NCBI GenBank assembly: GCA_029262515.1
Contig: JAJCZH010000005.1
Span: 31,793 to 95,792, forward strand
Direction of reading: 5' to 3'
From: Deltaproteobacteria bacterium
Lineage (GTDB): Bacteria; Desulfobacterota; GWC2-55-46; JADFVP01
Length of the DNA: 64,000 nucleotides
The translations under genes were made by a program, and so were the position numbers. Shown here one piece after another: positions 6,456 through 57,271 of this stretch; the first letter of the stretch is position 1; every line of letters starts with the position of its first letter. Below the pieces are notes generated by a model, which ran no database searches, was not told the DNA's origin, and saw nothing but the letters and a program-made list of their open reading frames with translations.

Positions 6456-7325
6456 ATCTGCCGTTTTGTGCTCTACCTCGGAACCGAGATAACAATCAGC
6501 TCTCTGGTGACGGAACCGACCCATTCTATAATTCACCAGTCTTATAACAGCAAAGAGGGTGAGGAGCCGCTAAACGGCGATGGTTTCGGCCTTGCGTGGT
6601 ATGCTCCCCATCTGCCGGAAGAGCCGGCTCTTTTCAAGGCCGTTACTCCCGCATGGAACAACATGAACCTCTTAAGCCTCGCTCGCGTAACAAAGAGCAG
6701 CTGCATACTGGCGCATGTTCGCGCCGCGACTCCGGGGCTTCCCGTAATTCAGCTCAACTGTCACCCGTTTGTTCGCGGTTCAATTTCGTTTATGCATAAC
6801 GGCAAGGTGGGAGGTTTTGCGAAGATACGCAGACGTATTATAGAGCGCCTCTCGGACGCGGCATTCGAGTCGATCGAGGGCTCTACGGACTCCGAGTATG
6901 TCTTTGCGTTATTTCTCGACCAGTACTCGGCTCAGGACCAGGGACTTGCCAAGAGTGAGAGACTTGCCCGGGCCTTGGGCGCGACTATAAAAGAGGTGAA
7001 CTCCATAGTAGACGAGGCCGGAATAGAGGATGCGTCGTTTCTGAACCTTGCGGTCGCCGACGGCACTTCGGCAGTCGTCTGCCGCTACGTAAGTTGCGGG
7101 TCCAAGAGGGCAAATACCCTCTATATCCATACCGGTTCGAGTTTCTCCTGTGTAGACGGTCTCTACACAATGGCGGAGCCGGACAAGGGTACCCACGCCG
7201 TTGTGGTGGCCTCTGAGCCGCTGGGAAGCAATTCGGAATGGACGGTCGTTCCGGAGAGCAGCATGGTCGTGATAGAATCTGGCACAGGTGTCGTGATGCG
7301 CCCTATTCAGGCCCCGCCAGCCTAA
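6456..7325 (+). CDS. class II glutamine amidotransferase (EgtC/DUG3-like Ntn hydrolase); apparent ATC start codon
   Basis: Motifs NGDGFGLAWY, LAHVRAAT, NCHPF, FMHNG, GSTDSE and VASEPL. The N-terminal CRFVLYLG is preceded in frame by ATC at 6456, with AAGGAGG upstream. Confidence 0.85.
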   Translation: MCRFVLYLGTEITISSLVTEPTHSIIHQSYNSKEGEEPLNGDGFGLAWYAPHLPEEPALFKAVTPAWNNMNLLSLARVTKSSCILAHVRAATPGLPVIQLNCHPFVRGSISFMHNGKVGGFAKIRRRIIERLSDAAFESIEGSTDSEYVFALFLDQYSAQDQGLAKSERLARALGATIKEVNSIVDEAGIEDASFLNLAVADGTSAVVCRYVSCGSKRANTLYIHTGSSFSCVDGLYTMAEPDKGTHAVVVASEPLGSNSEWTVVPESSMVVIESGTGVVMRPIQAPPA

Positions 7326-12566: not shown

Positions 12567-13163
12567 TTACACGTTAAACCTTCTCCTCACAAACCCGAGG
12601 CCCCCTAACCCGACGAGACCGCTTCCGAGAAGCAGAAGCACTCCGGGTTCCGGTATCGGGGCGACTCCGTCGTTGCCGTTGGTGTCGTTCAGTGCCAGAG
12701 AGTTTGTGTTGAGAGTGTCGGGCAGAAACCACGTGATATTCACATTGTAGTAGTACGGTGAAGTCCAGTCCGCCGGCTGTTGAGGCGTACCCGTGGTAAC
12801 CTCATTGGCGAATGTCATCTCTACGCTATATGTGTTATCAGCAGCATCTCCGGATAACGTATACTCCCTTGTGCCGTCGTTCAATACAAAGTCTATTATA
12901 TCACCGCCCTGGAAATTCGTAAGACTGGAACTTCCAAGCGAGTAGACTGTTGTACCTCCATTTAAATAGTAACCGTAGGTATAACCAGTGGTGTAAGCGA
13001 CGCTCATAATGTTTACGTCTACCCCACCATCGGCGTCGCCGTCGATAGCTATTATTGAATCTCCACCCAGAGTAAGCGCCCCGGCCATTGCCGGCATCAT
13101 TAACAATGCGACAAAGAGCAGACAGCTTACTGTCAGAATGGATATTTTCCTCAGTTCGTACAT
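12567..13163 (-). CDS. PEP-CTERM sorting-domain surface protein (paralog of 56557-57153)
   Basis: Signal peptide and C-terminal IPEPGVLLLLGSGLVGLGGLGFVRRR. Confidence 0.92.
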   Translation of the reverse strand: MYELRKISILTVSCLLFVALLMMPAMAGALTLGGDSIIAIDGDADGGVDVNIMSVAYTTGYTYGYYLNGGTTVYSLGSSSLTNFQGGDIIDFVLNDGTREYTLSGDAADNTYSVEMTFANEVTTGTPQQPADWTSPYYYNVNITWFLPDTLNTNSLALNDTNGNDGVAPIPEPGVLLLLGSGLVGLGGLGFVRRRFNV

Positions 13164-13252
13164 TCCTTTTTATCCTGTCTTACGGTAGTAAGTAAGCACT
13201 CTAGTGTTACATACCGGTTGAGGTTCTTACTTACGGTTTAACTCCAGATACG

Positions 13253-13819
13253 CTACTTCTTGATCTTTCTTCTTATGAACCCTAGCCCTGCAAGACCGCT
13301 TCCGAGAAGAAGCAGAGTGGAAGGTTCCGGCACGGCAGAGACTCCATCGAGTTCAACGCCTGGGGTGCCTGTGGGTGGTCCGCCCAGTGAACTGGTAAGA
13401 ACCATATTGTCCAGAAGTCTTACGTTTACCGTATTACGCGCCACGTTGTCGGTGAACCTGAAACGCATCAGCCAGTCATCGTTGTCGAGGCTGATCGGGT
13501 CTACCACGTGCCTTACCGCAGTGTCAAATATAGCATTATCAACGGTAAAGGTAAAGCTCGCATACGGGTCTGGTGTAGCCTGGTCGAAACTGAGACCGAT
13601 CCAGAAGTGCGTAGTCGAAGCACCAATGTTAAATGACCAGTCATTTGCGCCAAGGCTGCCAGGTGTTGCGCTTTCCGGGTGAATCTGTGTAGGTGAGCCC
13701 TGCGCCAAATTGTCGGCCTCGAGCTGGCCAAGGCTGTAGGTCAGCGCGTGTACATTCGGTACGAGCGCAAACAACATAAACAGAACTACAGCTGACACTC
13801 CAGTCTTTGTTTTTGCCAT
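13253..13819 (-). CDS. PEP-CTERM sorting-domain surface protein
   Basis: AGGAGGAG RBS, signal peptide ending VHA, and C-terminal VPEPSTLLLLGSGLAGLGFIRRKIKK. Confidence 0.92.
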   Translation of the reverse strand: MAKTKTGVSAVVLFMLFALVPNVHALTYSLGQLEADNLAQGSPTQIHPESATPGSLGANDWSFNIGASTTHFWIGLSFDQATPDPYASFTFTVDNAIFDTAVRHVVDPISLDNDDWLMRFRFTDNVARNTVNVRLLDNMVLTSSLGGPPTGTPGVELDGVSAVPEPSTLLLLGSGLAGLGFIRRKIKK

Positions 13820-46588: not shown

Positions 46589-48850
46589 TCAAGAAGCCTT
46601 GTCGTTCAATTTCGTCTTGCTGTCGATACTCTCTACCTTTTTTAGATCCGGTATGTCGGTATTTGTCGTGTAACCATCTACCGTAAGCAGAGAGGTAACC
46701 GAGACCCTGTTTCTGCCGGTAGTCTTTGAACGGTAGAGGGCTATATCGACCTGCCGCATAAGTTCGTCTTTATCAACGCCGTCTTCAGGGTACGTAGAGA
46801 CACCGAGGCTTACCGTTGTGCGCTCCTTTACGCCGTTCATGTTGGTAGCGGTATCGGTTTCTACAATGCTGCGAATCTTCTCGGCCAGGGCGTGGGCGCC
46901 GTTTTTGTCGGTATTGGGCAGAATAACAACAAACTCCTCTCCGCCGTACCTTGCAACTATGTCAGACTCCCTTACGGTCTTCAGGAAGAGGTCCGAGACC
47001 TTCTGCATAATGTTATCGCCCTGTTTATGGCCGTAGAGGTCGTTAAAGCGTTTAAAGTGATCGATATCGATCATTATGATGCTCAAAGGCTGGGTAAAGC
47101 GCGTGGCAAAAGCGAACTGTGTTGGCAGGGCCTCTTCAAGGAAACGGCGGTTGTAGAGTCCCGTTAACTGGTCCCGTATCGCCATTGTACGGTGGGCCTT
47201 TACCAGGCGCATGCTCGATATGGCAGGGGCAACGGTACTGATGTAGGAGTTGATCATAAAGTTGCACTCGGTCGTGAAGAAGTTTTTCTGCAGGCTTACC
47301 AGGTGTATCCATCCGACCGTAGAGCCGCCGGTGGAGATCGGCGCGCACATATAACTTCCGTGCTCCTGAGCAACCTCCTGGTTCGGGCACCGGTACTCGG
47401 TCTCGACATCGTTTACAATAAAATCCTGCCCCGACCTGACCGCCCTGCACTGACGGTTGCTATGTATAGACTTCATATCGCGGCATGACGGAGTGGATAA
47501 CGTGGCTTCACCCTCGTCGCTGCCGTATGTCGCAATCACTTCTGCCAGATCCTCGCTGTTATTGAGGCTGATCACGACAATCTTGTCTATATTGAAACTT
47601 TTGGAGAGGTACCTGATAAGTATGGAGTAGCACTCCGCCTCGGAGATTTCGCCTCCTACCAGCTTTCCGAACTTCACAAGGTCCTGAAGGCGTTGAAGTT
47701 CAATGTCCAGTTCCTCTTGTACCATGTGCAGTTTTCTCGACATCATTATGAAGGAGCGGGAGAGGTCTCCGAGTTCGTCCTTTTCCTTAATCGCCAGGGC
47801 TTCTATTTTCTCTTGTGCCTCTTTATTGGTAATGTTCGAGCCGTCGGTGTACTCCTGGCTGATCCGTGCCATTGCATTTGAGAAGACCTGCAGGCGTGTC
47901 ACGATCATCTTCCTCGTTACTATGACGATGACGACTCCGAGCGGTATTGAGCTTAGAAAGAGCAGCAGCGCAACCCTGTTGAGCAGAGTCATGGTATCGG
48001 CCATCAACACTGCCTTGCTTGTGCTGAGCATGTACCGTACGCCTAATGGCGCATGCGTGCTGTAAGAGATAACCTCACCGTCATTGTTATCGACAACGAC
48101 CCCTGTCTCCCCGCCTATTAATGCACCGAAGACCTCGCCATGCTCTTTGGCCGTATCTGTCAGCACCGTGTTCGAGTCCCTGGTATTGAACAGGACCGTA
48201 CCCTCCCAGGTAGTAACGTAGGCATCGTCAACAATACCCTTTATCAGCAGCGAGTTGAAAATATGGTTCAGTACGTCCGGGTTGAGGGTCATGGTCAGAA
48301 CCCCGAGAGTCCTCTGTTCGTACGATACCGCCATACCCCAGTCCATGGCGAGATAATTTTCTCCTTTTCTGAAAGTGGGCTGGCTCAGTTTAAAGGCCGG
48401 GGCCTTGATTACCTCGGAGTAGTAAGCCCTGTTATTGTGGTCCTTATACTCTTTACGTATCTCCTGGTTTTTAATAAGTACCTCTTCGATACCGTTATTA
48501 TCGATAAACCTTATGTACTCGATTAGTTCGGGACGGGAGACGGATGATGTCAGGAAGAGTTCTTCGAGGGCCGCCTTCTTCTGAGGTTCTGCCTTTAACC
48601 GGCCAGAGGCCTTGGCTTCGAGGTATTCGATAAAGACCCTGTGCTTGTGAAGGTATGTTAAGATCGACGACCATTCCTTAACCAGCTGGTCGAGCTGGGA
48701 AGAGACTACTTTGCTGAGTTGGATATTTGCCTCTTTAGCCTCTTTTATCGTCACATTCCTCTGAATGTAGTAGTATGCGACAAGCGTTATCGTGGAGACG
48801 ATAAAGAGGGTGCCAAATATCGTGATGAGAATCTTGCTCTGTAGCTTCAC
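46589..48850 (-). CDS. diguanylate cyclase (Cache-HAMP-GAF-GGDEF)
   Basis: Motifs RDQLTGLYNRR, DIDHFKRFND.YGH..GD, RESD and RYGGEEF. Sigma-28-like TCAG-N15-CCCGATAT at 48930-48956. Confidence 0.93.
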   Translation of the reverse strand: MKLQSKILITIFGTLFIVSTITLVAYYYIQRNVTIKEAKEANIQLSKVVSSQLDQLVKEWSSILTYLHKHRVFIEYLEAKASGRLKAEPQKKAALEELFLTSSVSRPELIEYIRFIDNNGIEEVLIKNQEIRKEYKDHNNRAYYSEVIKAPAFKLSQPTFRKGENYLAMDWGMAVSYEQRTLGVLTMTLNPDVLNHIFNSLLIKGIVDDAYVTTWEGTVLFNTRDSNTVLTDTAKEHGEVFGALIGGETGVVVDNNDGEVISYSTHAPLGVRYMLSTSKAVLMADTMTLLNRVALLLFLSSIPLGVVIVIVTRKMIVTRLQVFSNAMARISQEYTDGSNITNKEAQEKIEALAIKEKDELGDLSRSFIMMSRKLHMVQEELDIELQRLQDLVKFGKLVGGEISEAECYSILIRYLSKSFNIDKIVVISLNNSEDLAEVIATYGSDEGEATLSTPSCRDMKSIHSNRQCRAVRSGQDFIVNDVETEYRCPNQEVAQEHGSYMCAPISTGGSTVGWIHLVSLQKNFFTTECNFMINSYISTVAPAISSMRLVKAHRTMAIRDQLTGLYNRRFLEEALPTQFAFATRFTQPLSIIMIDIDHFKRFNDLYGHKQGDNIMQKVSDLFLKTVRESDIVARYGGEEFVVILPNTDKNGAHALAEKIRSIVETDTATNMNGVKERTTVSLGVSTYPEDGVDKDELMRQVDIALYRSKTTGRNRVSVTSLLTVDGYTTNTDIPDLKKVESIDSKTKLNDKAS

Positions 48851-49032: not shown

Positions 49033-49067
49033 AAAAACCCCACCGGCCTATCAGGCGGGTGGGGTTT
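49033..49067 (-). terminator. terminator after the methyltransferase gene
   Basis: aaaaaccccacc.gcc / ggcgggtggggttt. Confidence 0.75.
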
Positions 49068-49102
49068 GTGCAGAGTTAGAGGTCGCTTATGAGATTGATC
49101 TG

Positions 49103-50050
49103 TTAACAGCACTTTCCGGGTGTTGGTTGTGAGGACTTCTGAGGTCCGCCTTCCGCGTCTATTACCGTGAAGAGACCAGAATATGGAGGCCTGTTGAGTT
49201 TTTCGGCTGTTTCCGAGCTGATCTCAACCGGTATTCCGGCCTCATACAACTGCCCGTCGTCGTCCGATACCGATTGAAACGGCCCGTTATAGATTGCATA
49301 TTGGCCTGAATAAGCCGGTACGCTCTCTTTTTGAAATTTATAACCGTTTAAGGTAATTGAATAGAAGCGGATGCCTTCCAATTCTCTGTACAGGGACCTC
49401 GATACTATAAGCAGGCCGTAAAAACCTGCCTCTCTGGCGGCGCCTATGAACTGCTCTTCTCTCAAAGCCCCGGCAAGGCATTCGCCCCATAATTGTTTGT
49501 CGTTATAGATCTTCTCCGGAAGCTCCCTATCTGATACAACATCTGAAATACAGAACCTTCCTGTCGGTTTGAGAACCCGGTAGATCTCTTTAAAGACCGC
49601 CTTTTTATCTGCCGAGAGATTTATAACGCAGTTTGAAGTCACAAGGTCTGCGGTTCCGTTCTCCAGGAAAATTTCCTCAAGGAAGCCCTTTTTAAATTCG
49701 ACGACATCGTAACCGAGGTTCCCGGCCACGTCCGAGGCCGCCTCGTTTGCTATACCGATCATCTTATCTGTCATATCAATACCTATGACCCGTCCGGTTC
49801 GCCCCACTGAGCGTGCCGCTATGAAGCAATCTATGCCGCCGCCGGAACCGAGGTCCACAACTGTCTCTCCCGCACTTATCCCGGCCATCGTCACCGGGCT
49901 TCCGCAGCCGTAGGAGACCTCTAGCACGCTCTTTGGTATGTGCGAAATCGTCTCCTCCGGGTACTTTGCCGCGCAGCAGAGTGATGCAATCGGCTCATGG
50001 GCCGCAGCGGCATAGAACCTGTTTACCGACTCGCGAACTTTGTTATCCAT
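49103..50050 (-). CDS. arsenite S-adenosylmethyltransferase-like (ArsM family) protein
   Basis: Motifs LCC, SYGCGSP, VDLGSGGGIDC, GIDMT, TSNCVINL, WGECLAGA and C-terminal KCC. Confidence 0.82.
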   Translation of the reverse strand: MDNKVRESVNRFYAAAAHEPIASLCCAAKYPEETISHIPKSVLEVSYGCGSPVTMAGISAGETVVDLGSGGGIDCFIAARSVGRTGRVIGIDMTDKMIGIANEAASDVAGNLGYDVVEFKKGFLEEIFLENGTADLVTSNCVINLSADKKAVFKEIYRVLKPTGRFCISDVVSDRELPEKIYNDKQLWGECLAGALREEQFIGAAREAGFYGLLIVSRSLYRELEGIRFYSITLNGYKFQKESVPAYSGQYAIYNGPFQSVSDDDGQLYEAGIPVEISSETAEKLNRPPYSGLFTVIDAEGGPQKSSQPTPGKCC

Positions 50051-50117
50051 CAAACGCCTCCTTGCTGTTCTATAGTTCAGTCTTTCCCTCGTTATTCTTA
50101 CCTTACTACAGAAAAGG

Positions 50118-51257
50118 TCAAGAACCGAGGCCGTTGATACAGATTAAATATACTATTGCGGAGATGCCCGCTGCAACAGGAAATGTTACTGCCCAGGCAG
50201 TAAGCATCTCGTAGATAATACGCCTGTTAATTCCTATGGCATTGCGTTTGAGTCCTATACCTATAATAGAGCTGCTGCTGACATGCGTTGTAGAGACCGG
50301 CATTCCCAATCTGGAGGCGAAGACTACTAGTAGAGCCGTGCAGAGGTTGGCTATAACGGAGTCATTTCTGTCCATATCCGTTATCTTTTCCGACAACGTC
50401 TCTGTTACTCTTGTTCCGTAAAGGTATCCGCCAAGCCCCATCGCTACAATGACCATAAGAAAGAGCAACCGCCTGTCGATGTCGGTAAAGGCGGCTGATG
50501 CGAACATTATCGCCACGATCTTTGGGGTATCGTTCATCCCGCGGGCAAAGGAGATCAGCCCGCTTGAGAACCAATGGGTAATGTCATTGAAGTCGAGCCT
50601 TGTTGGCGAATCGAGTCTCTCGTCACACTCCGATATCTCAGCCGCCTGAACCGCAAGGGTTTCGGCTTTGAAGGATGTTATAGCGGTAGTTCCAACTGCC
50701 GGCCCACATCTCAGAACTTTTGTCGGCCCGAAGCAGAGGCAGTATTCAGAAAGCCTCGAAAGAATGGCGTAACCGGTTCTATAGACAAACAGTGTTAAGA
50801 GCAGAGCAAGAAAGGGACTTAGCAAGAGCGGGGCCATTATCTTGTAGCCGAGTGTTCCCCATACTATCTTATCAGGTCCCATGGTCAGCAGTACCGGGCC
50901 GCAGACGGCACCGACAATAGAGTGCGTGGTTGAGACCGGCATGCCGTAACGTGTGGCGAACAAGACCCATAAAAAGACACCGGAGCCGACGGCTATGGAG
51001 AAACTGGTTGTCAGTTCTACATCGCTTGCAATTAGTCCTGCGCTGAAAACCTTCAATAAAGCGGATGCGACGAAGAAGGAGAGCAAACCTCCGGCAACTG
51101 TCCATACCGTTCCCCAAAGGAGCGCTACCCGGTACTTGCAGAGGCCGCTGCCGACAAGAGTGGCCACGCCCTTTGATATGTCATTGGTGCCGTTAAAGAA
51201 GGCGACCAGCACTACTACCAATATTAAAAGGTATTCAATCACAGTAGGCGGCTCCAA
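50118..51257 (-). CDS. PiT family inorganic anion transporter with a Cys-containing central loop
   Basis: Motifs NGTNDISKGVATL, MPVSTTH (twice) and FARGMNDTPK. Loop YCLC..LRCG..SEC. Confidence 0.9.
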   Translation of the reverse strand: MEPPTVIEYLLILVVVLVAFFNGTNDISKGVATLVGSGLCKYRVALLWGTVWTVAGGLLSFFVASALLKVFSAGLIASDVELTTSFSIAVGSGVFLWVLFATRYGMPVSTTHSIVGAVCGPVLLTMGPDKIVWGTLGYKIMAPLLLSPFLALLLTLFVYRTGYAILSRLSEYCLCFGPTKVLRCGPAVGTTAITSFKAETLAVQAAEISECDERLDSPTRLDFNDITHWFSSGLISFARGMNDTPKIVAIMFASAAFTDIDRRLLFLMVIVAMGLGGYLYGTRVTETLSEKITDMDRNDSVIANLCTALLVVFASRLGMPVSTTHVSSSSIIGIGLKRNAIGINRRIIYEMLTAWAVTFPVAAGISAIVYLICINGLGS

Positions 51258-51483
51258 AACCTGAATTTATGTACCATATGAAATCAGCTATATGATAGTG
51301 AAACAAAAACTTAGAAAACTTGAACCTGTTCTTCTTTTCTGCGGCCTGCCCCTGAAGTAACCGGTAGGTAAAGATATCCGTCTATACACTGAACCCTTCC
51401 CCCCTCCCCCGGGTGTTGCAGGGGAGAGGTGCTGCAAGACGTGGTATTTGTTCTGTTATGATACAGAGGTTAAGTAGCTATCT

Positions 51484-52140
51484 TTAACGGTTACCGCACG
51501 GATTTTTGGTGCTGCACGGATTTTTTACTGCACACGGGTTATTGGTGCTGCATGGATTATTTATCGCACACGGGTTTTTGGTGCCGCATGGGTTTGCAAC
51601 ACCGGTGGAGTTGTTGCTTACATATGCGGCAAGCGAGGTCATCTTTTGAGAGTTCCAGCCAAGTGGTTTGCCTTTCATTGGGTTGACCATGCAGAAGTTG
51701 ATCATCTGGTCGAGAGTAAGTACGTCGTCAGCCATCTTTATGTACTTGGGATACGGCTTGGAGTTGAGGTTGGAGGTTTTGCCCTTTGGGTGGCATGTTG
51801 AGCAAGACAGGCCGCTTTTACCGAGCGTGCTATCTACCCAGAGGCGCTCACCACGGTCTACGACTTTACCGTAGTCCTTCAGGGGATAATTTCTTATCGG
51901 TTTGTTCTTCATCTTTGCGCTGCACGGGTTGCTCATACCGCAGGGGTTACTCATCTTGGCTCCGCACGGGTTGATTATGCCACAGGGGTTGCTACTCTTG
52001 GTACTACAGGGATTCATGCCGCATGGATTCATCTTCTGTCCGGCAGTTGCGTCCTGAACGCTTGCAACCGTTAACGTCAACGCAATAGTTAACAGCATTG
52101 CAGCGGCCAGAGAGAACCCGGCTTTTGTTAAAACCCTCAT
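51484..52140 (-). CDS. secreted monoheme c-type cytochrome (SoxA/TsdA-like domain) flanked by 12 Asn-Pro-Cys repeats
   Basis: Signal peptide, CSTCH, and YPKY...TLDQMINFCMVNPMKGKPL...MTSLAAY. Six NPC units on each side. AAGGAGG RBS. Confidence 0.85.
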   Translation of the reverse strand: MRVLTKAGFSLAAAMLLTIALTLTVASVQDATAGQKMNPCGMNPCSTKSSNPCGIINPCGAKMSNPCGMSNPCSAKMKNKPIRNYPLKDYGKVVDRGERLWVDSTLGKSGLSCSTCHPKGKTSNLNSKPYPKYIKMADDVLTLDQMINFCMVNPMKGKPLGWNSQKMTSLAAYVSNNSTGVANPCGTKNPCAINNPCSTNNPCAVKNPCSTKNPCGNR

Positions 52141-52236
52141 TATATCCTCCTTACATTAGTGTTAAAGACTCGATCGGTTATACTTCTATTATTCTAAATA
52201 AGCGCAAAGGCCAGGAACGTGGCCCTTGTTTACAGC

Positions 52237-52602
52237 CTATAGCGTGATTATCTGATAACCTTCACCCACCAGAGCGGCGATACTGGGGTGTCCCATATAC
52301 TCGTCAGTAACCGGTAGTCCGGCGGCCTTAACCTCTTCTGCGTTACCTTCAAATGCACATATACAGTATTGGCAGACTCCTGAGATTGCCCCGGACTCTT
52401 TTACTTCTGCGAAGATATGACCGAGCGGATGGCCGGGTTTGGATAACACTTCCACCCATTTTGTGCCGCCACCGTCGAAGAAGAGTTTGGCAATATGTCC
52501 CGCTTCGATGAGTTCTTTTGTGTAGAGCAGCGAGTGAAGGGCTCTGCCCATTGCGTCATGCGTTCCGGGTGCCGCATGCAGTATGATGGCAATCTTTTGC
52601 AT
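52237..52602 (-). CDS. DsrE/DsrF-like protein
   Basis: KIAIIL..GRALHSLLY..L..G..AKLFFDGGG..GVCQYC..GHPSIAALVGEGYQIITL. The ORF is open upstream to 52743/52812, so the start is uncertain. Confidence 0.8.
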   Translation of the reverse strand: MQKIAIILHAAPGTHDAMGRALHSLLYTKELIEAGHIAKLFFDGGGTKWVEVLSKPGHPLGHIFAEVKESGAISGVCQYCICAFEGNAEEVKAAGLPVTDEYMGHPSIAALVGEGYQIITL

Positions 52603-52818
52603 TATTCTCTTTCCATGACTCTCTTGTTCATTTCCAGACCTATTTCTGTTTGAGGTTAAGCCTGTGTCCTCTCTTGAATTACTGTTCCTGGCGGAATAGT
52701 TTGTGTCGATTGAGCGGAAGATTTCTCCTTTTCTTATTCTCATGCAGAATCCCTCCATAGACGAAAGGAGTCCGGTGCGCCATGGCGAACCTTTGTCTAT
52801 GCCTTTGATCATGAGTTC

Positions 52819-52861
52819 AGTTTACTGTTTTAGCGGGTTGAAAGATGTAAGGAGGCTTACA
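52819..52861 (-). promoter_or_regulatory. Crp/Fnr-type operator with class II promoter geometry
   Basis: Palindrome TGTAAG-GAGG-CTTACA (52846-52861) and -10 TAAACT (52819-52824). The site centre falls at -41.5. Confidence 0.7.
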
Positions 52862-52873
52862 CTTGAGAGAATA

Positions 52874-53545
52874 TTATGAAAAAACTTTTTCCGTCAGGGT
52901 ATAGTTGCGGCCGTCGACCTGCAGGCTGCCCTCTTTCTTTAATTTGTTGATTTCAAGCGTCACTGTCTCGCGCGAAGAGCCGATCAGGTTTGCGATATCC
53001 TGGTGCGTCAGTTTCAGCTTGATCCTGAGACCTTCTTGAGACTGCTGCCCGTACTTGGCAGCAAGGTCGCTGAAGAGCATCTGCAGGCGCGAGCGTACGT
53101 CGCGAAAGATCAGGTTCTCAAGGCGGCTTTCGATACGACGGAGCCTGAAACCGATAAAGCGCGTTATGGCGAGAGAGAATCCGGGGTTCTTGCCGATAAA
53201 GTCTTCAAACTCCTGCCTGTTAATCGCGCAGATCATGGAGTCCTCAATGGCCTCGGCGCTCGTCTCCCTCTCTTCTTCCCCGGCAATGGAGAGTTCTCCG
53301 AAGATATCACCCGGTTCTAGCAACTCTACCGTAAGTTCCCTGCCGTCGTCACTCAGGCGCGAGAGTTTCACCATACCTTCTTTTAACATATAGATCTTGT
53401 CGGATTTGTCTCCGGCCGTATAGACTCTGTTCTTCTTCTTTATTTCGTCCGTACGCATTATAGAGGCCATTACCTTCATTTCTTTTTCCGGCAGGCCCAT
53501 AAAGAGACTGTTCGTGCTGATATACCAGAGTTTCGTCTTCTGCAT
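52874..53545 (-). CDS. Crp/Fnr family transcriptional regulator
   Basis: Motifs G.VKL...DGRE, PGDIFGE and HTH LTHQDIANLIGSSRETVT. Lacks the FNR Cys cluster. Confidence 0.95.
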   Translation of the reverse strand: MQKTKLWYISTNSLFMGLPEKEMKVMASIMRTDEIKKKNRVYTAGDKSDKIYMLKEGMVKLSRLSDDGRELTVELLEPGDIFGELSIAGEEERETSAEAIEDSMICAINRQEFEDFIGKNPGFSLAITRFIGFRLRRIESRLENLIFRDVRSRLQMLFSDLAAKYGQQSQEGLRIKLKLTHQDIANLIGSSRETVTLEINKLKKEGSLQVDGRNYTLTEKVFS

Positions 53546-53611: not shown

Positions 53612-54454
53612 TTACAGCTCTATCTGTTTTGGGGCCCTCTCGGCCATCGCCTCTATCTGCTCAACGTCTATCTCCGGTGTTGCGGTCAGGAGCTTATTTT
53701 TTGTGAACTCTATATCGAAAAAGTCGTTATCTTTGTGCAGCTCGAACTCTGCTTTGCATGAGTGGCAGTGCACCGTATCTCCGGCCTCTTTATGCCTCGG
53801 TACGGTTATAATAGGACCGCAAGCCGGGCAGCTGAGCATCGGCCTCGACTCGTCGCTGTGGCCGATTACTCCGTTTAGTTTATCAGTATCAAAGAGCCCG
53901 ACCAGAACATCTACAAATCTTTCATCGAACTGAGAGCTGCGATTCTTTTGCAGTATATAAATAGCCTTGGCTGCTTCCATTCCTGCGCGGTACGGTCTTG
54001 TGCTCGTCATCGCATCAAAAGCGTCAGCAATCGAGACTATTAGGGCCGGCATTGATAGGTTCGCTTCAGGGATTTTTTCCGGATAGCCGTGTCCGTCTAC
54101 TCGTTCGTGGTGGTGACCGATGGCGTCGAGTACAAGGGGCGCCAAAGGGTGAGAGATAAGAATCTTACGCCCGGTAACCGGGTGTGCGCGCATTATCTCA
54201 TACTCATCGTCGGTAAGCTTGCCGGGCTTATTGAGTATACTGTCGGGTACCGCGACTTTACCTATGTCATGGATAAGCCCGCCGAGAAAAGCCTTGAAGA
54301 CTTGCTGCTCGCTCAACCCGGAACTCTTTGCGATACGCTCCGCGTACTGGGCTACCCGCCAGACATGGCCGCCTGTGTATGCATCTCTGGCCTCTATTAT
54401 CGCTCCGAAGATCAGTAAGGATTTTAACAGGCCTTTGTCTAGATCTACTTTCAT
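53612..54454 (-). CDS. HD-GYP phosphodiesterase with a C-terminal zinc ribbon
   Basis: Motifs EARDAYTGGH, HDIGK, HHERVDGHGYP, ADAFDAMTSTRPYR and CPACG...CHSC. Confidence 0.92.
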   Translation of the reverse strand: MKVDLDKGLLKSLLIFGAIIEARDAYTGGHVWRVAQYAERIAKSSGLSEQQVFKAFLGGLIHDIGKVAVPDSILNKPGKLTDDEYEIMRAHPVTGRKILISHPLAPLVLDAIGHHHERVDGHGYPEKIPEANLSMPALIVSIADAFDAMTSTRPYRAGMEAAKAIYILQKNRSSQFDERFVDVLVGLFDTDKLNGVIGHSDESRPMLSCPACGPIITVPRHKEAGDTVHCHSCKAEFELHKDNDFFDIEFTKNKLLTATPEIDVEQIEAMAERAPKQIEL

Positions 54455-56556: not shown

Positions 56557-57153
56557 TTAACTCTGGAGCTTTCTCCTAACGAAACCGAGGGCCCCTATTC
56601 CGAAGATACCACTGCCGAGAAGCAGAAGCGTTCCGGGCTCCGGTACCGGGGCAAGCCCGTCATTACCGTTGCTGTCGTTCAATACAAGCTCGTTCGTATT
56701 GAGTGTGTCGGCCAGGTTCCAAGTGATATTCACATTGAAGTAGTACGGTGAGGTCCAGTCGGCCGGTTGCTGTGGTGAGCCGGTAGTAACCTGGTTGGCG
56801 AAGGTCATAATGACGCTGTATGAGCTGTCAGCGGCATCCCCGGAGAGAGAATAGTCCCTTGTGCCGTCATTGAGTACAAAATCAATGACATCTCCGCCCT
56901 GAAAAACAGTCTGGCTCACACTGCCCAGACTGTTGAGTGTTGTGCCGCCGTTGAGGTAGTAACCGTAGGTATAACCAGTGGTGAATGCAACGTTGGAGAT
57001 AGTGACATCTACCCCGGAGTCGCCGTTTCCGTCAATTGCGATTATTCTGTTTCCACCGGTTGTAAGTGCCCGGGCCATTGTCGGCGCCATTAGCAGTGCG
57101 ATAAAGAGCAAGCAGCTTACCGCCAGTATCTGTCTCTTTCCAAATATATGCAT
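56557..57153 (-). CDS. PEP-CTERM sorting-domain surface protein (paralog of 12567-13163)
   Basis: Signal peptide and VPEPGTLLLLGSGIFGIGALGFVRRK. Confidence 0.92.
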   Translation of the reverse strand: MHIFGKRQILAVSCLLFIALLMAPTMARALTTGGNRIIAIDGNGDSGVDVTISNVAFTTGYTYGYYLNGGTTLNSLGSVSQTVFQGGDVIDFVLNDGTRDYSLSGDAADSSYSVIMTFANQVTTGSPQQPADWTSPYYFNVNITWNLADTLNTNELVLNDSNGNDGLAPVPEPGTLLLLGSGIFGIGALGFVRRKLQS

Positions 57154-57271
57154 TCCGTTACCTCTGTTATTAAACAACACTATTTTAAAGTATGCCGCCG
57201 TCTATTGATGTAGCGTATGTTCTTACACGTAGACATATACAACTCATATCTACCTACTGGTCAGTAAGTAG

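Follow-up and report, generated by a model that had tools for sequence, protein, structure and literature searches.

A Crp-linked cluster of cysteine-rich proteins in a deltaproteobacterium is a mosaic of two conserved modules with a possible role in thiophilic metalloid handling

Results

Five co-directional genes form a mosaic of two modules

This study concerns a cluster of five genes at positions 49103-53545 of a 64,000-nucleotide (nt) stretch of contig JAJCZH010000005.1 (assembly GCA_029262515.1, Deltaproteobacteria bacterium), which we call the window; the genome that carries it (G000) is 2.5 Mb in size and 98% complete. As a preliminary description of the sequence had reported, all five open reading frames (ORFs) lie on the minus strand, in the order crp, dsrE-like, NPC-cytochrome, PiT, and arsM. 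The first gene, crp (53545-52874), encodes a Crp/Fnr-family regulator of 223 amino acids (aa), and a predicted palindromic operator (TGTAAGcctcCTTACA; 52846-52861) lies 13 nt past its stop codon. The dsrE-like gene (52812, or more probably 52602, to 52237) encodes a protein with a CxxC motif and a predicted DsrE/YchN fold, and the NPC-cytochrome gene (52140-51484) encodes a secreted monohaem cytochrome c of the SoxA/TsdA type (218 aa). A 226-nt spacer (51258-51483) precedes the gene for a PiT/PHO4-family permease with a CxC...C central loop (51257-50118), and the last gene, arsM (50053-49103), encodes a methyltransferase of the As(III) S-adenosylmethionine (SAM) type (316 aa) that ends in ...GKCC.

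Domains were assigned by Pfam and NCBIfam profile searches, in which the cut-off is each model's curated score. The gene identities given earlier agree with these assignments; the DsrE-like and ArsM proteins score below cut-off and are backed by fold and structure alignment. The cysteine theme of the cluster was likewise borne out, with cysteine contents of 6.9% in the cytochrome, 2.8% in ArsM, 2.5% in the DsrE-like protein, and 2.1% in PiT, compared to a background of 1.0% in 1255 long ORFs (95th percentile, 2.79%).

The cluster is a mosaic of two separately conserved modules. Module A consists of crp, the operator, and the NPC-cytochrome gene, joined elsewhere by a gene for a pentahaem cytochrome. 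Module B consists of the gene for a PiT permease with a CxC motif (PiT-CxC) and an arsM gene whose product ends in CC, joined elsewhere by genes for an ArsS radical-SAM protein, a flavoprotein, and DedA. Besides the window, the two modules adjoin each other only in a locus of a groundwater metagenome-assembled genome (MAG; L003), where the order is crp, a SEC-C ORF, cytochrome, pentahaem cytochrome, PiT, arsM, flavoprotein, and dedA, with dsrE 1 kb upstream. The encoded proteins of the two loci are 54-63% identical. The co-occurrence of the five families that was envisaged earlier was found again, with extra genes, in L003 and nowhere else besides the window.

Pairing of the modules was also assessed in a sample of 401 genomes of the phylum, in which the cytochrome occurs in 14, PiT-CxC in 5, and both (Crp and NPC-cytochrome with PiT) in 3, compared to 0.17 expected. 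The hypergeometric P value of this co-occurrence is 3e-4, or 6e-3 when the query genome is left out, and kinship among the genomes inflates both. Thus far, the pairing comprises two adjacent cases and one on a common contig. No published description of the gene combination, the NPC-cytochrome family, or the PiT-CxC subfamily was found in a literature search outside most subscription journals.

The Crp/Fnr-family regulator and its operator

The regulator has an N-terminal domain of the cyclic-nucleotide-binding type (Pfam cNMP_binding, 77.3 bits) and a C-terminal helix-turn-helix (HTH_Crp_2, 47.8 bits). It has 66 solved relatives at E ≤ 1e-8; the nearest are mycobacterial and corynebacterial CRPs (3h3u, 3d0s, and 4byy; ~2e-29), and NtcA is also among the closest. 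The N-terminal cysteine cluster that binds [4Fe-4S] in FNR was not found; because the protein has only one cysteine, it is not an oxygen sensor of the FNR type. Homologues of 52-56% identity are encoded just upstream of the NPC-cytochrome in eight further loci or genomes (L002, L003, L007, L014, G120, G162, G379, and G049).

The palindrome at 52846-52861 reads TGTAAGGAGGCTTACA and has the pattern TGTAA-N6-TTACA. Exact matches to this pattern number 3 in the genome compared to 2.3 expected, so that the weight of the palindrome lies in its conservation and not in its counts. The other two copies are intragenic, which leaves 52846-52861 as the sole intergenic exact copy in the genome, and the regulator apparently has a single local target. 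The exact palindrome recurs in 9 other loci (10 with the window), in accord with the operator first proposed between the regulator gene and dsrE, and in 8 of these 9 it directly follows a crp homologue (L002, L003, L007, L014, G162, G120, G379, and G049). Apart from L002, L003, L007, and L014, the loci that hold these exact copies are L065/L068, L066, L076, L078, and L074; in L074, the cytochrome locus of G280, the palindrome is upstream of the cytochrome, and no crp match was found within the 635 nt of sequence there.

A TATAAT or TATAGT box is located ~22 nt past the palindrome in L002, L003, L007, and L014, and TAAACT occurs at equal spacing in the window. Because this spacing to a -10-like box would place the center of the palindrome near -41.5, the palindrome is predicted to act in the promoter as a class-II Crp/Fnr activation site. 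An ATG follows the -10-like box by 6 nt, which suggests a leaderless start. A related site was found in module B of another locus (L024), where TCTAAGGCGGCTTACA, an operator-like site with one mismatch, is positioned 50 nt before the PiT start (chance estimate, ~0.01 for the 350-nt stretch concerned).

The NPC-repeat cytochrome

The cytochrome has a signal peptide and six N-terminal and six C-terminal NPC[GSA] repeats around a core of ~100 residues, which matches the Pfam model SoxA-TsdA_cyt-c (PF21342) with 62.6 bits (cut-off, 27). In an alignment of this core with the first of the haem domains of Rhodovulum SoxA (1h31; 9.8e-8), CSTCH and QMINFC of the cytochrome match CADCH and QMINAC of 1h31. 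Conservation of both the CxxCH motif and the MINxC cysteine relative to SoxA supports His/Cys ligation of the haem, with the cysteine of QMINFC as putative distal ligand. In SoxA, this first domain is not known to be the one that carries out catalysis.

The NPC-cytochromes are a small family: among 1.84 billion, 30 representative clusters match at E ≤ 1e-30 and 171 at ≤ 1e-10, and existing annotations call the members nothing more than "hypothetical" or "cytochrome c". Among homologues the core is almost invariant and the number of NPC repeats is free to vary, with one protein having none. No Pfam or NCBIfam model matches the repeats; matches of two homologues to the "defensin-like" model PF25052 were rejected as cysteine-rich noise. 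A secreted protein of ~90 aa that contains NPCA repeats only is encoded on the minus strand of L031 (G291:C31) at ~13004-13333.

The pentahaem partner and other neighbors of the cytochrome

A pentahaem cytochrome (~390 aa, five CxxCH sites) is encoded directly after the NPC-cytochrome in 15 of 16 further loci taken from genome contigs, L013 being the exception. The same is true of 11 of the 14 other cytochrome loci in the phylum sample; the exceptions are G162, L077, which ends just past the cytochrome, and L080, which has a weak match with stop codons. We searched the 226-nt spacer of the window for a remnant of this gene using 16 pentahaem proteins (tblastn) and found none (best E, 0.14), and blastn of the spacer against L003, L017, and L024 gave noise only, such that no deletion scar was demonstrable. 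The genome does contain a canonical pair on contig C2 (C2:104359-106292; L017 1498-3431), which encodes an NPC-cytochrome of 233 aa and a pentahaem cytochrome of 426 aa with no crp, dsrE, PiT, or arsM nearby.

The partner family resembles T. tepidum cytochrome c552 (5ze8; Z 13.2 over 233 residues, next best 6.8; profile 3.7e-15) and MccSep/ExtKL (profile 1.6e-13), and it scores 57 against a cut-off of 250 with NF040886. Besides the five CxxCH sites it has a C-terminal Ig-like domain. In the AlphaFold2 (AF2) model of the partner, the haem region is of low quality (mean confidence score pLDDT, 56), and use of the model was limited to its Ig-like part and its overall match to 5ze8. The partner encoded in a Chromatiales MAG (L016 2052-3833) is extended at its C-terminus by a thioredoxin-like part with a WCPTC motif.

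In eight loci the gap between operator and cytochrome contains an ORF for a cysteine-rich peptide of ~52 aa with two SEC-C motifs (Pfam SEC-C, 43.8 bits), located at ~6640-7100 in L014 and at the equivalent place in L002, L003, L007, L009, L068, L070, and L076. This peptide, which is absent from the window, looks metallothionein-like. Other neighbors of the cytochrome elsewhere are rhodanese (3 loci), a CcdA-like membrane protein (2 loci), and redoxin (3 loci), a set that we take to echo the Sox accessory proteins that keep SoxY reduced. The L014 locus also encodes a periplasmic rhodanese upstream of the cytochrome (~6650-7090), in which an in-frame TGA after "TYCT" at the expected active-site loop may specify selenocysteine.

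The DsrE-like protein

With Pfam PF02635 the DsrE-like protein scores 19.8 bits, below the gathering cut-off of 22.7; a precomputed PF02635 match is present in 20 of the 30 homologues listed. Twenty-six of these 30 are 118-122 aa long, and the ATG at 52602, which gives a 121-aa core, is on this account the likely start. The AF2 model of the protein has a pLDDT of 91.6 and confirms, at the level of a predicted structure, a three-layer alpha/beta DsrE fold: of the eight top Foldseek matches, seven are DsrE/DsrF-like, YchN, DsrEFH, or TusBCD proteins (TM score, 0.58-0.64), led by 3mc3 (E 5.8e-4) and followed by 2qs7, 1jx7, 2hy5, 2fb6, 2pd2, and 2d1p. A sequence search of the Protein Data Bank (PDB) with this protein returned nothing meaningful (best E, 1.1).

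Both cysteines of the CxxC motif (C77 and C80) are invariant in 25 sequences, and by this motif the protein is assigned to a predicted redox-type CxxC subfamily. C77 lies at a strand-to-helix junction of the AF2 model. The active-site cysteine of DsrE/TusD is Cys78, to which C77 may correspond. Among the families in a 2026 review of selenoproteomes is a "DsrE-like protein" family whose motif is UxxC (PMC13188914), and the window protein looks like the cysteine form of that family. More broadly, DsrE-like homologues of up to 43% identity occur in 78 of the 401 genomes. None of the other cluster genes was found within 1.5 kb on either flank of 29 other DsrE-like loci, one weak flavoprotein match aside, so that distant homologues are uninformative about the subfamily.

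The gene has a 70-codon in-frame 5' extension (52603-52812, from the ATG at 52812) that is possibly translated and that is open in three sequences (the window, P0067, and P0070). The extension motif C-[IM]-x-[IF]-[KR]-[KA]-G-E is common to the window, P0067, P0070, L003, and L007, and in L003 and L007 it is in a separate small ORF. The extension could be a leader peptide, the true N-terminus, or a conserved RNA. P0067 and P0002, which may together represent the closest relative of the dsrE-cytochrome pair, are both assigned to a contig of 4770 nt and so may share one.

The PiT permease

The permease matches PHO4 over its full length (218.9 bits; positions 1-350 of 350), and GTG 51242, which has an upstream GGAG, is a likelier start than 51257. 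The N-D pair of each half (N25-D26 and N242-D243) is invariant among its relatives. The central loop contains C173 and C175, which form the CxC motif, and C211, and all six relatives compared (37-58% identity) keep the three cysteines unchanged. The best NCBIfam matches are the sulfate permease CysP (78 bits; cut-off, 400) and PitA (67; cut-off, 800), and because these scores are far below the cut-offs we made no equivalog assignment. A search of the ESM Atlas returned generic phosphate-transporter clusters only. The PiT-CxC subfamily is rare, represented in 5 of the 401 genomes at E ≤ 1e-40 and in one close metagenome relative.

An ArsM-like gene lies within two genes of PiT in five of the six other PiT-CxC loci (L003, L024, G162, G291, and G076); the sixth (G120) is a 7.7-kb contig on which PiT stands alone. 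A class-I pyridine-nucleotide disulfide reductase, a glutathione-reductase-like flavoprotein that lacks the C-terminal cysteine pair of MerA, is encoded beside PiT in L003, G162, and G291, and dedA genes flank the cluster in the same three. The order in G291 is arsM, arsS, PiT, flavoprotein, and dedA, and an NPC-only secreted peptide is encoded 7 kb from this operon.

ArsM and other arsenic and selenium genes of the genome

ArsM aligns with the solved structures of CrArsM (5evj, 2.2e-42) and CmArsM (4fr0, 7.2e-39; the match range of 4kw7 is identical to that of 4fr0). Its SAM-binding fold is indicated by Methyltransf_31 (107 bits) and by DLGSGGG, which aligns with solved ArsMs. All four As(III)-binding cysteine motifs are kept, as SLCC (SAC of 5evj), YGCGSP, SNCVINL, and GECLAGA (5evj, 4kw7); the corresponding cysteines of CmArsM are numbered Cys44, Cys72, Cys174, and Cys224. 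By these residues the protein is of the ArsM type, for which As(III) methylation is predicted. It scores below the cut-offs of the arsenosugar (153; cut-off, 400) and arsinothricin (222; cut-off, 500) ArsM models. The C-terminal CC is common to the ArsMs of the window, L003, L024, and G162.

In relatives, arsM is linked to arsS: an ArsS-ArsM fusion is encoded in G162 (TIGR04167, 370 bits; cut-off, 300), a radical-SAM-ArsM fusion in L024, and an ArsS gene between arsM and PiT in G291 (DUF3641, 185 bits). ArsS carries out radical C-adenosyl transfer in arsenosugar synthesis, according to a preprint (bioRxiv 10.1101/2024.02.01.577332). The window genome has a stand-alone ArsS-like radical SAM/DUF3641 gene (172 bits) at G000:C7:78525-78926 (L034 1492-2784, minus strand), far from arsM. 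It also encodes a SelD homologue (G000:C8:239042-239965; L082; 355 bits) with one in-frame TGA, from which we infer that the organism probably uses selenocysteine and makes selenoproteins.

Spacers, terminators, and flanking genes

The spacer between the cytochrome and PiT genes had been described as ~230 nt with a hairpin; its length is 226 nt, and the GC-rich hairpin (~51400-51430, minus strand) is real (-29.3 kcal/mol; z, -2.2; 5 of 200 shuffles as stable) and has no U-tract. No operator-like site with ≤3 mismatches was found in this spacer or in the pentahaem-PiT spacer of L003. A pattern scan marked a second terminator-like hairpin on the minus strand of the dsrE-cytochrome gap (52205-52228), a possible attenuator; the fold of this spacer is no better than that of shuffles (z, -0.4). 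Past arsM, an intrinsic terminator on the minus strand (49045-49078), a GC stem followed by UUUUU, is the sole canonical terminator of the cluster (-24.7 kcal/mol; z, -4.79; 0 of 200 shuffles as stable). Sequencing runs listed as containing the stretch are two DNA runs of one study, with no RNA run among them.

The cluster is flanked by unrelated signaling genes on the same strand, for an HD-domain protein with a zinc ribbon upstream and a Cache-GAF-GGDEF protein downstream. The cluster is thus enclosed by genes of c-di-GMP signaling, and the genome has many paralogues of both. The coordinates of the signaling genes and of a nearby PEP-CTERM protein gene in the window are 53612-54454, 46589-48850, and 56557-57180.

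Discussion

A tentative scheme for the cluster

At a little less than even confidence, we favor the reading that the five genes are a Crp-activated mosaic operon whose products handle a thiophilic metalloid through thiols, most probably arsenic in a sulfidic setting. What was observed, and what this reading builds on, is the identity of the genes, conservation of the cysteines and of the operator, and the fact that the modules recur both singly and paired. A local Crp-family activator would bind TGTAA-N6-TTACA in place of a -35 box and switch on a promoter reading into the genes for a cytoplasmic CxxC protein of DsrE fold and a secreted His/Cys haem protein of the SoxA/TsdA type. In the periplasm, the cytochrome would use the twelve NPC cysteines of its flexible ends to capture the substrate, or its attached sulfur, and the low-potential His/Cys haem would make or break a Cys-S-X bond, with electrons passing to or from the c552/ExtKL-like pentahaem cytochrome of contig C2. 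The PiT permease would import the oxyanion, and the CxC...C loop of PiT, the CxxC of the DsrE-like protein, and the CC tail of ArsM would relay the thiol-bound species. ArsM would then methylate the substrate with SAM, after which the ArsS homologue of contig C7 could add a deoxyadenosyl group, as in arsenosugar synthesis. Proposed parts of this scheme are the co-transcription of the five genes, the identity of the substrate, the direction in which the redox step runs, and each transfer from one protein to the next.

Chance juxtaposition and other readings

Several observations weigh against such an operon. PiT-CxC is absent at E ≤ 1e-40 from 11 of the 14 cytochrome-positive genomes of the phylum sample; 5 of these 11 are among the 10 sampled relatives of the same family or order. 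The two modules of G162 are 14 kb apart, with genes for a GTPase, a transketolase, and a glucoamylase between them, and G076 has PiT and ArsM without an NPC-cytochrome. Close DsrE homologues are tied to the cluster only in the window and L003 and, as a remnant, in L007. The pentahaem partner is missing from the window, where the 226-nt spacer takes its place; with a stable hairpin and no operator in this spacer, transcription of PiT-arsM may start from a separate promoter. With respect to arsenic, ArsM scores 231.4 with PRK11873, below the NCBIfam cut-off for arsenite methyltransferases (263). Moreover, no Acr3, ArsB, or Grx-type ArsC was found in the 98%-complete genome, which contains only a sub-threshold ArsC of the LMW-PTP type; imported arsenate would thus have no recognized reductase, and arsenic handling would not be classical.

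These observations argue in part for the strongest alternative, in which the two modules share neither substrate nor regulation: module A would perform periplasmic redox chemistry on sulfur, polysulfide, or thiosulfate together with the pentahaem cytochrome, and module B would be an independent unit of arsenic methylation or organo-arsenic synthesis. This is a possibility on the doubtful side, and we rate chance juxtaposition as nearly as likely as the single-operon reading. It would account for the relatives of the same family or order that have the cytochrome-pentahaem pair without PiT-CxC, for the distance between modules in G162, for the spacer with its hairpin and no operator, and for the operons of PiT, ArsM, ArsS, and flavoprotein genes without a cytochrome in G291, G076, and L024. 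In contrast, chance would not readily explain the recurrence of both adjacency and order in L003 at only 54-63% protein identity, the co-occurrence in 3 of 5 genomes compared to 0.17 expected, the operator-like site upstream of PiT in L024, the NPC-only peptide near the G291 operon, or the lack of a canonical terminator ahead of arsM. The preliminary description had proposed one coordinated five-gene system; the pairing in three of the five PiT-positive genomes, the L024 site, and the G291 peptide speak for that proposal, and the separation of the modules in 11 of 14 genomes and by 14 kb in G162 speaks against it. Its further suggestion that PiT-arsM may be a separable unit agrees with the conservation of the modules apart from each other.

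Within the favored operon reading, the cysteine tetrad of ArsM and its ArsS partners make arsenic, possibly thio-arsenic, the best-supported substrate. A more far-reaching version, which we consider unlikely, is that the locus encodes a dedicated pathway for acquisition and organification of thio-arsenic under a Crp-type sensor. A cytochrome that is "SoxA and SoxY in one", together with the pentahaem wire, would capture thioarsenate or an arsenite-sulfide species and strip or rearrange its sulfur; the Cys-loop PiT would import the arsenic species and relay it through thiols to the CC tail of ArsM, and with ArsS organo-arsenicals would be made deliberately. If true, the cytochrome would be the first to have carrier cysteines built in, and the PiT the first to be gated by thiols.

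A pathway for selenium or tellurium is quite unlikely. Here the NPC-cytochrome and its pentahaem partner would reduce selenite, PiT (with DedA in relatives) would import it, the DsrE-like protein and flavoprotein would process selenium-thiol adducts, and the ArsM-like protein would methylate selenide for volatilization or supply. DedA proteins have been linked to selenite uptake, and L003, G162, and G291 have dedA genes beside the cluster; the in-frame TGA of SelD also fits this alternative. Further in its favor, the partner cytochrome is related to MccSep, which according to its preprint reduces both polysulfide and selenite (bioRxiv 10.1101/2025.11.18.688581), and selenoprotein forms of the DsrE-like (UxxC), ArsM, ArsS, rhodanese, and ExtKL families are listed in the selenoproteome review (PMC13188914). 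However, none of the four cysteines of the As(III) site is missing from the methyltransferase, and its relatives occur fused with ArsS, an enzyme known for its chemistry on arsenic, or are encoded beside it. In addition, no selenoprotein is encoded in the window, and the partner family lacks both catalytic residues of MccSep. Highly improbable is a pure sulfur function, in which PiT would be a CysP-like sulfate or thiosulfate permease, the cytochrome would oxidize thiosulfate like TsdA/SoxA, the DsrE-like protein would carry sulfane sulfur, and the methyltransferase would act on sulfide or persulfide; CysP as best NCBIfam match of PiT (78 bits), the SoxA/TsdA-type domain, the DsrE fold, and the rhodanese, CcdA-like, and redoxin genes beside the cytochrome elsewhere, with their presumed likeness to Sox accessory genes, fit such a function, but with the CysP model the permease falls far short of the cut-off (400), the cysteine tetrad of ArsM and its ArsS partners are arsenic-specific, and the DsrE-like protein has a CxxC redox motif instead of the single-cysteine signature of sulfur relay.

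Significance

How microbial arsenic methylation proceeds in anoxic, sulfidic settings is poorly understood, both in the route by which As(III) or thioarsenic reaches ArsM and in the many anaerobes that have ArsM without classical ars genes. The locus ties ArsM, and in relatives ArsS, to a rare PiT with a trio of cysteines and, in a few genomes, also to a regulator-controlled NPC cytochrome with a predicted His/Cys haem. It thereby offers concrete candidates for the periplasmic capture and the uptake of a thiophilic metalloid. Module A, with Crp, the operator, the SEC-C peptide, the NPC-cytochrome, and the c552-like pentahaem cytochrome, is a conserved unit that nobody has studied. Judged from sequence, the cluster is probably a variant of organo-arsenic or metalloid handling with two uncharacterized cysteine-based components, for which arsenic is the best fit.

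Comparison with known systems

The regulator has the domain architecture of the class-II activators of the CRP/FNR family (E. coli CRP, M. tuberculosis CRP, and NtcA), and, as with these, a 5-6-5 palindrome is predicted to take the place of the -35 box, ~22 nt before the -10-like box. The half-site TGTAA differs from the consensus TGTGA of CRP and TTGAT of FNR, and unlike FNR the window protein lacks the cysteine cluster.

The DsrE-like protein is predicted to share the fold of DsrE, TusD, and YchN (as in 3mc3, 2qs7, 1jx7, 2hy5, and 2d1p), and unlike the DsrE and TusD systems it has no DsrF/H or TusB/C partners.

The permease has in common with the PitA phosphate/arsenate transporter and B. 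subtilis CysP the full-length PHO4 match and the N-D pairs. It differs from both in the invariant CxC...C loop and in its synteny with ArsM, ArsS, and flavoprotein genes. ArsM likewise shares the SAM fold and the four cysteine motifs with CmArsM and CrArsM, to which the window type adds a conserved CC tail. Unlike in classical ars sets, its gene is partnered with PiT and not with Acr3, ArsB, ArsC, or ArsR, genes that searches of the genome did not recover, the sub-threshold LMW-PTP-type ArsC aside.

In architecture, module A is akin to MccSep, which was described recently as a reductase of polysulfide and selenite in the periplasm, with a His/Cys haem (C239) and Sec325 in its active site (bioRxiv 10.1101/2025.11.18.688581). 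The position of Cys239-Cys240 of MccSep is N-T in the partner family, which has no cysteine beyond its five CxxCH motifs and therefore neither of the MccSep catalytic residues (Cys239 and Sec/Cys325). Because the partner lacks them, the His/Cys haem and the nucleophilic cysteines would be supplied in trans by the NPC-cytochrome, such that the catalytic haem would reside on a separate subunit.

The NPC-cytochrome itself shares with SoxA and TsdA one cytochrome domain, the CxxCH motif, and the conserved distal cysteine. Unlike the two-domain SoxA/SoxX or the dihaem TsdA, it is a single domain of ~90 residues without a second haem motif, it scores 59 against the cut-off of 110 with the SoxA equivalog TIGR04484, and no SoxX, SoxYZ, or SoxB gene adjoins it. 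What further sets it apart from SoxA and TsdA is the 12 NPC cysteine repeats that flank its cytochrome domain.

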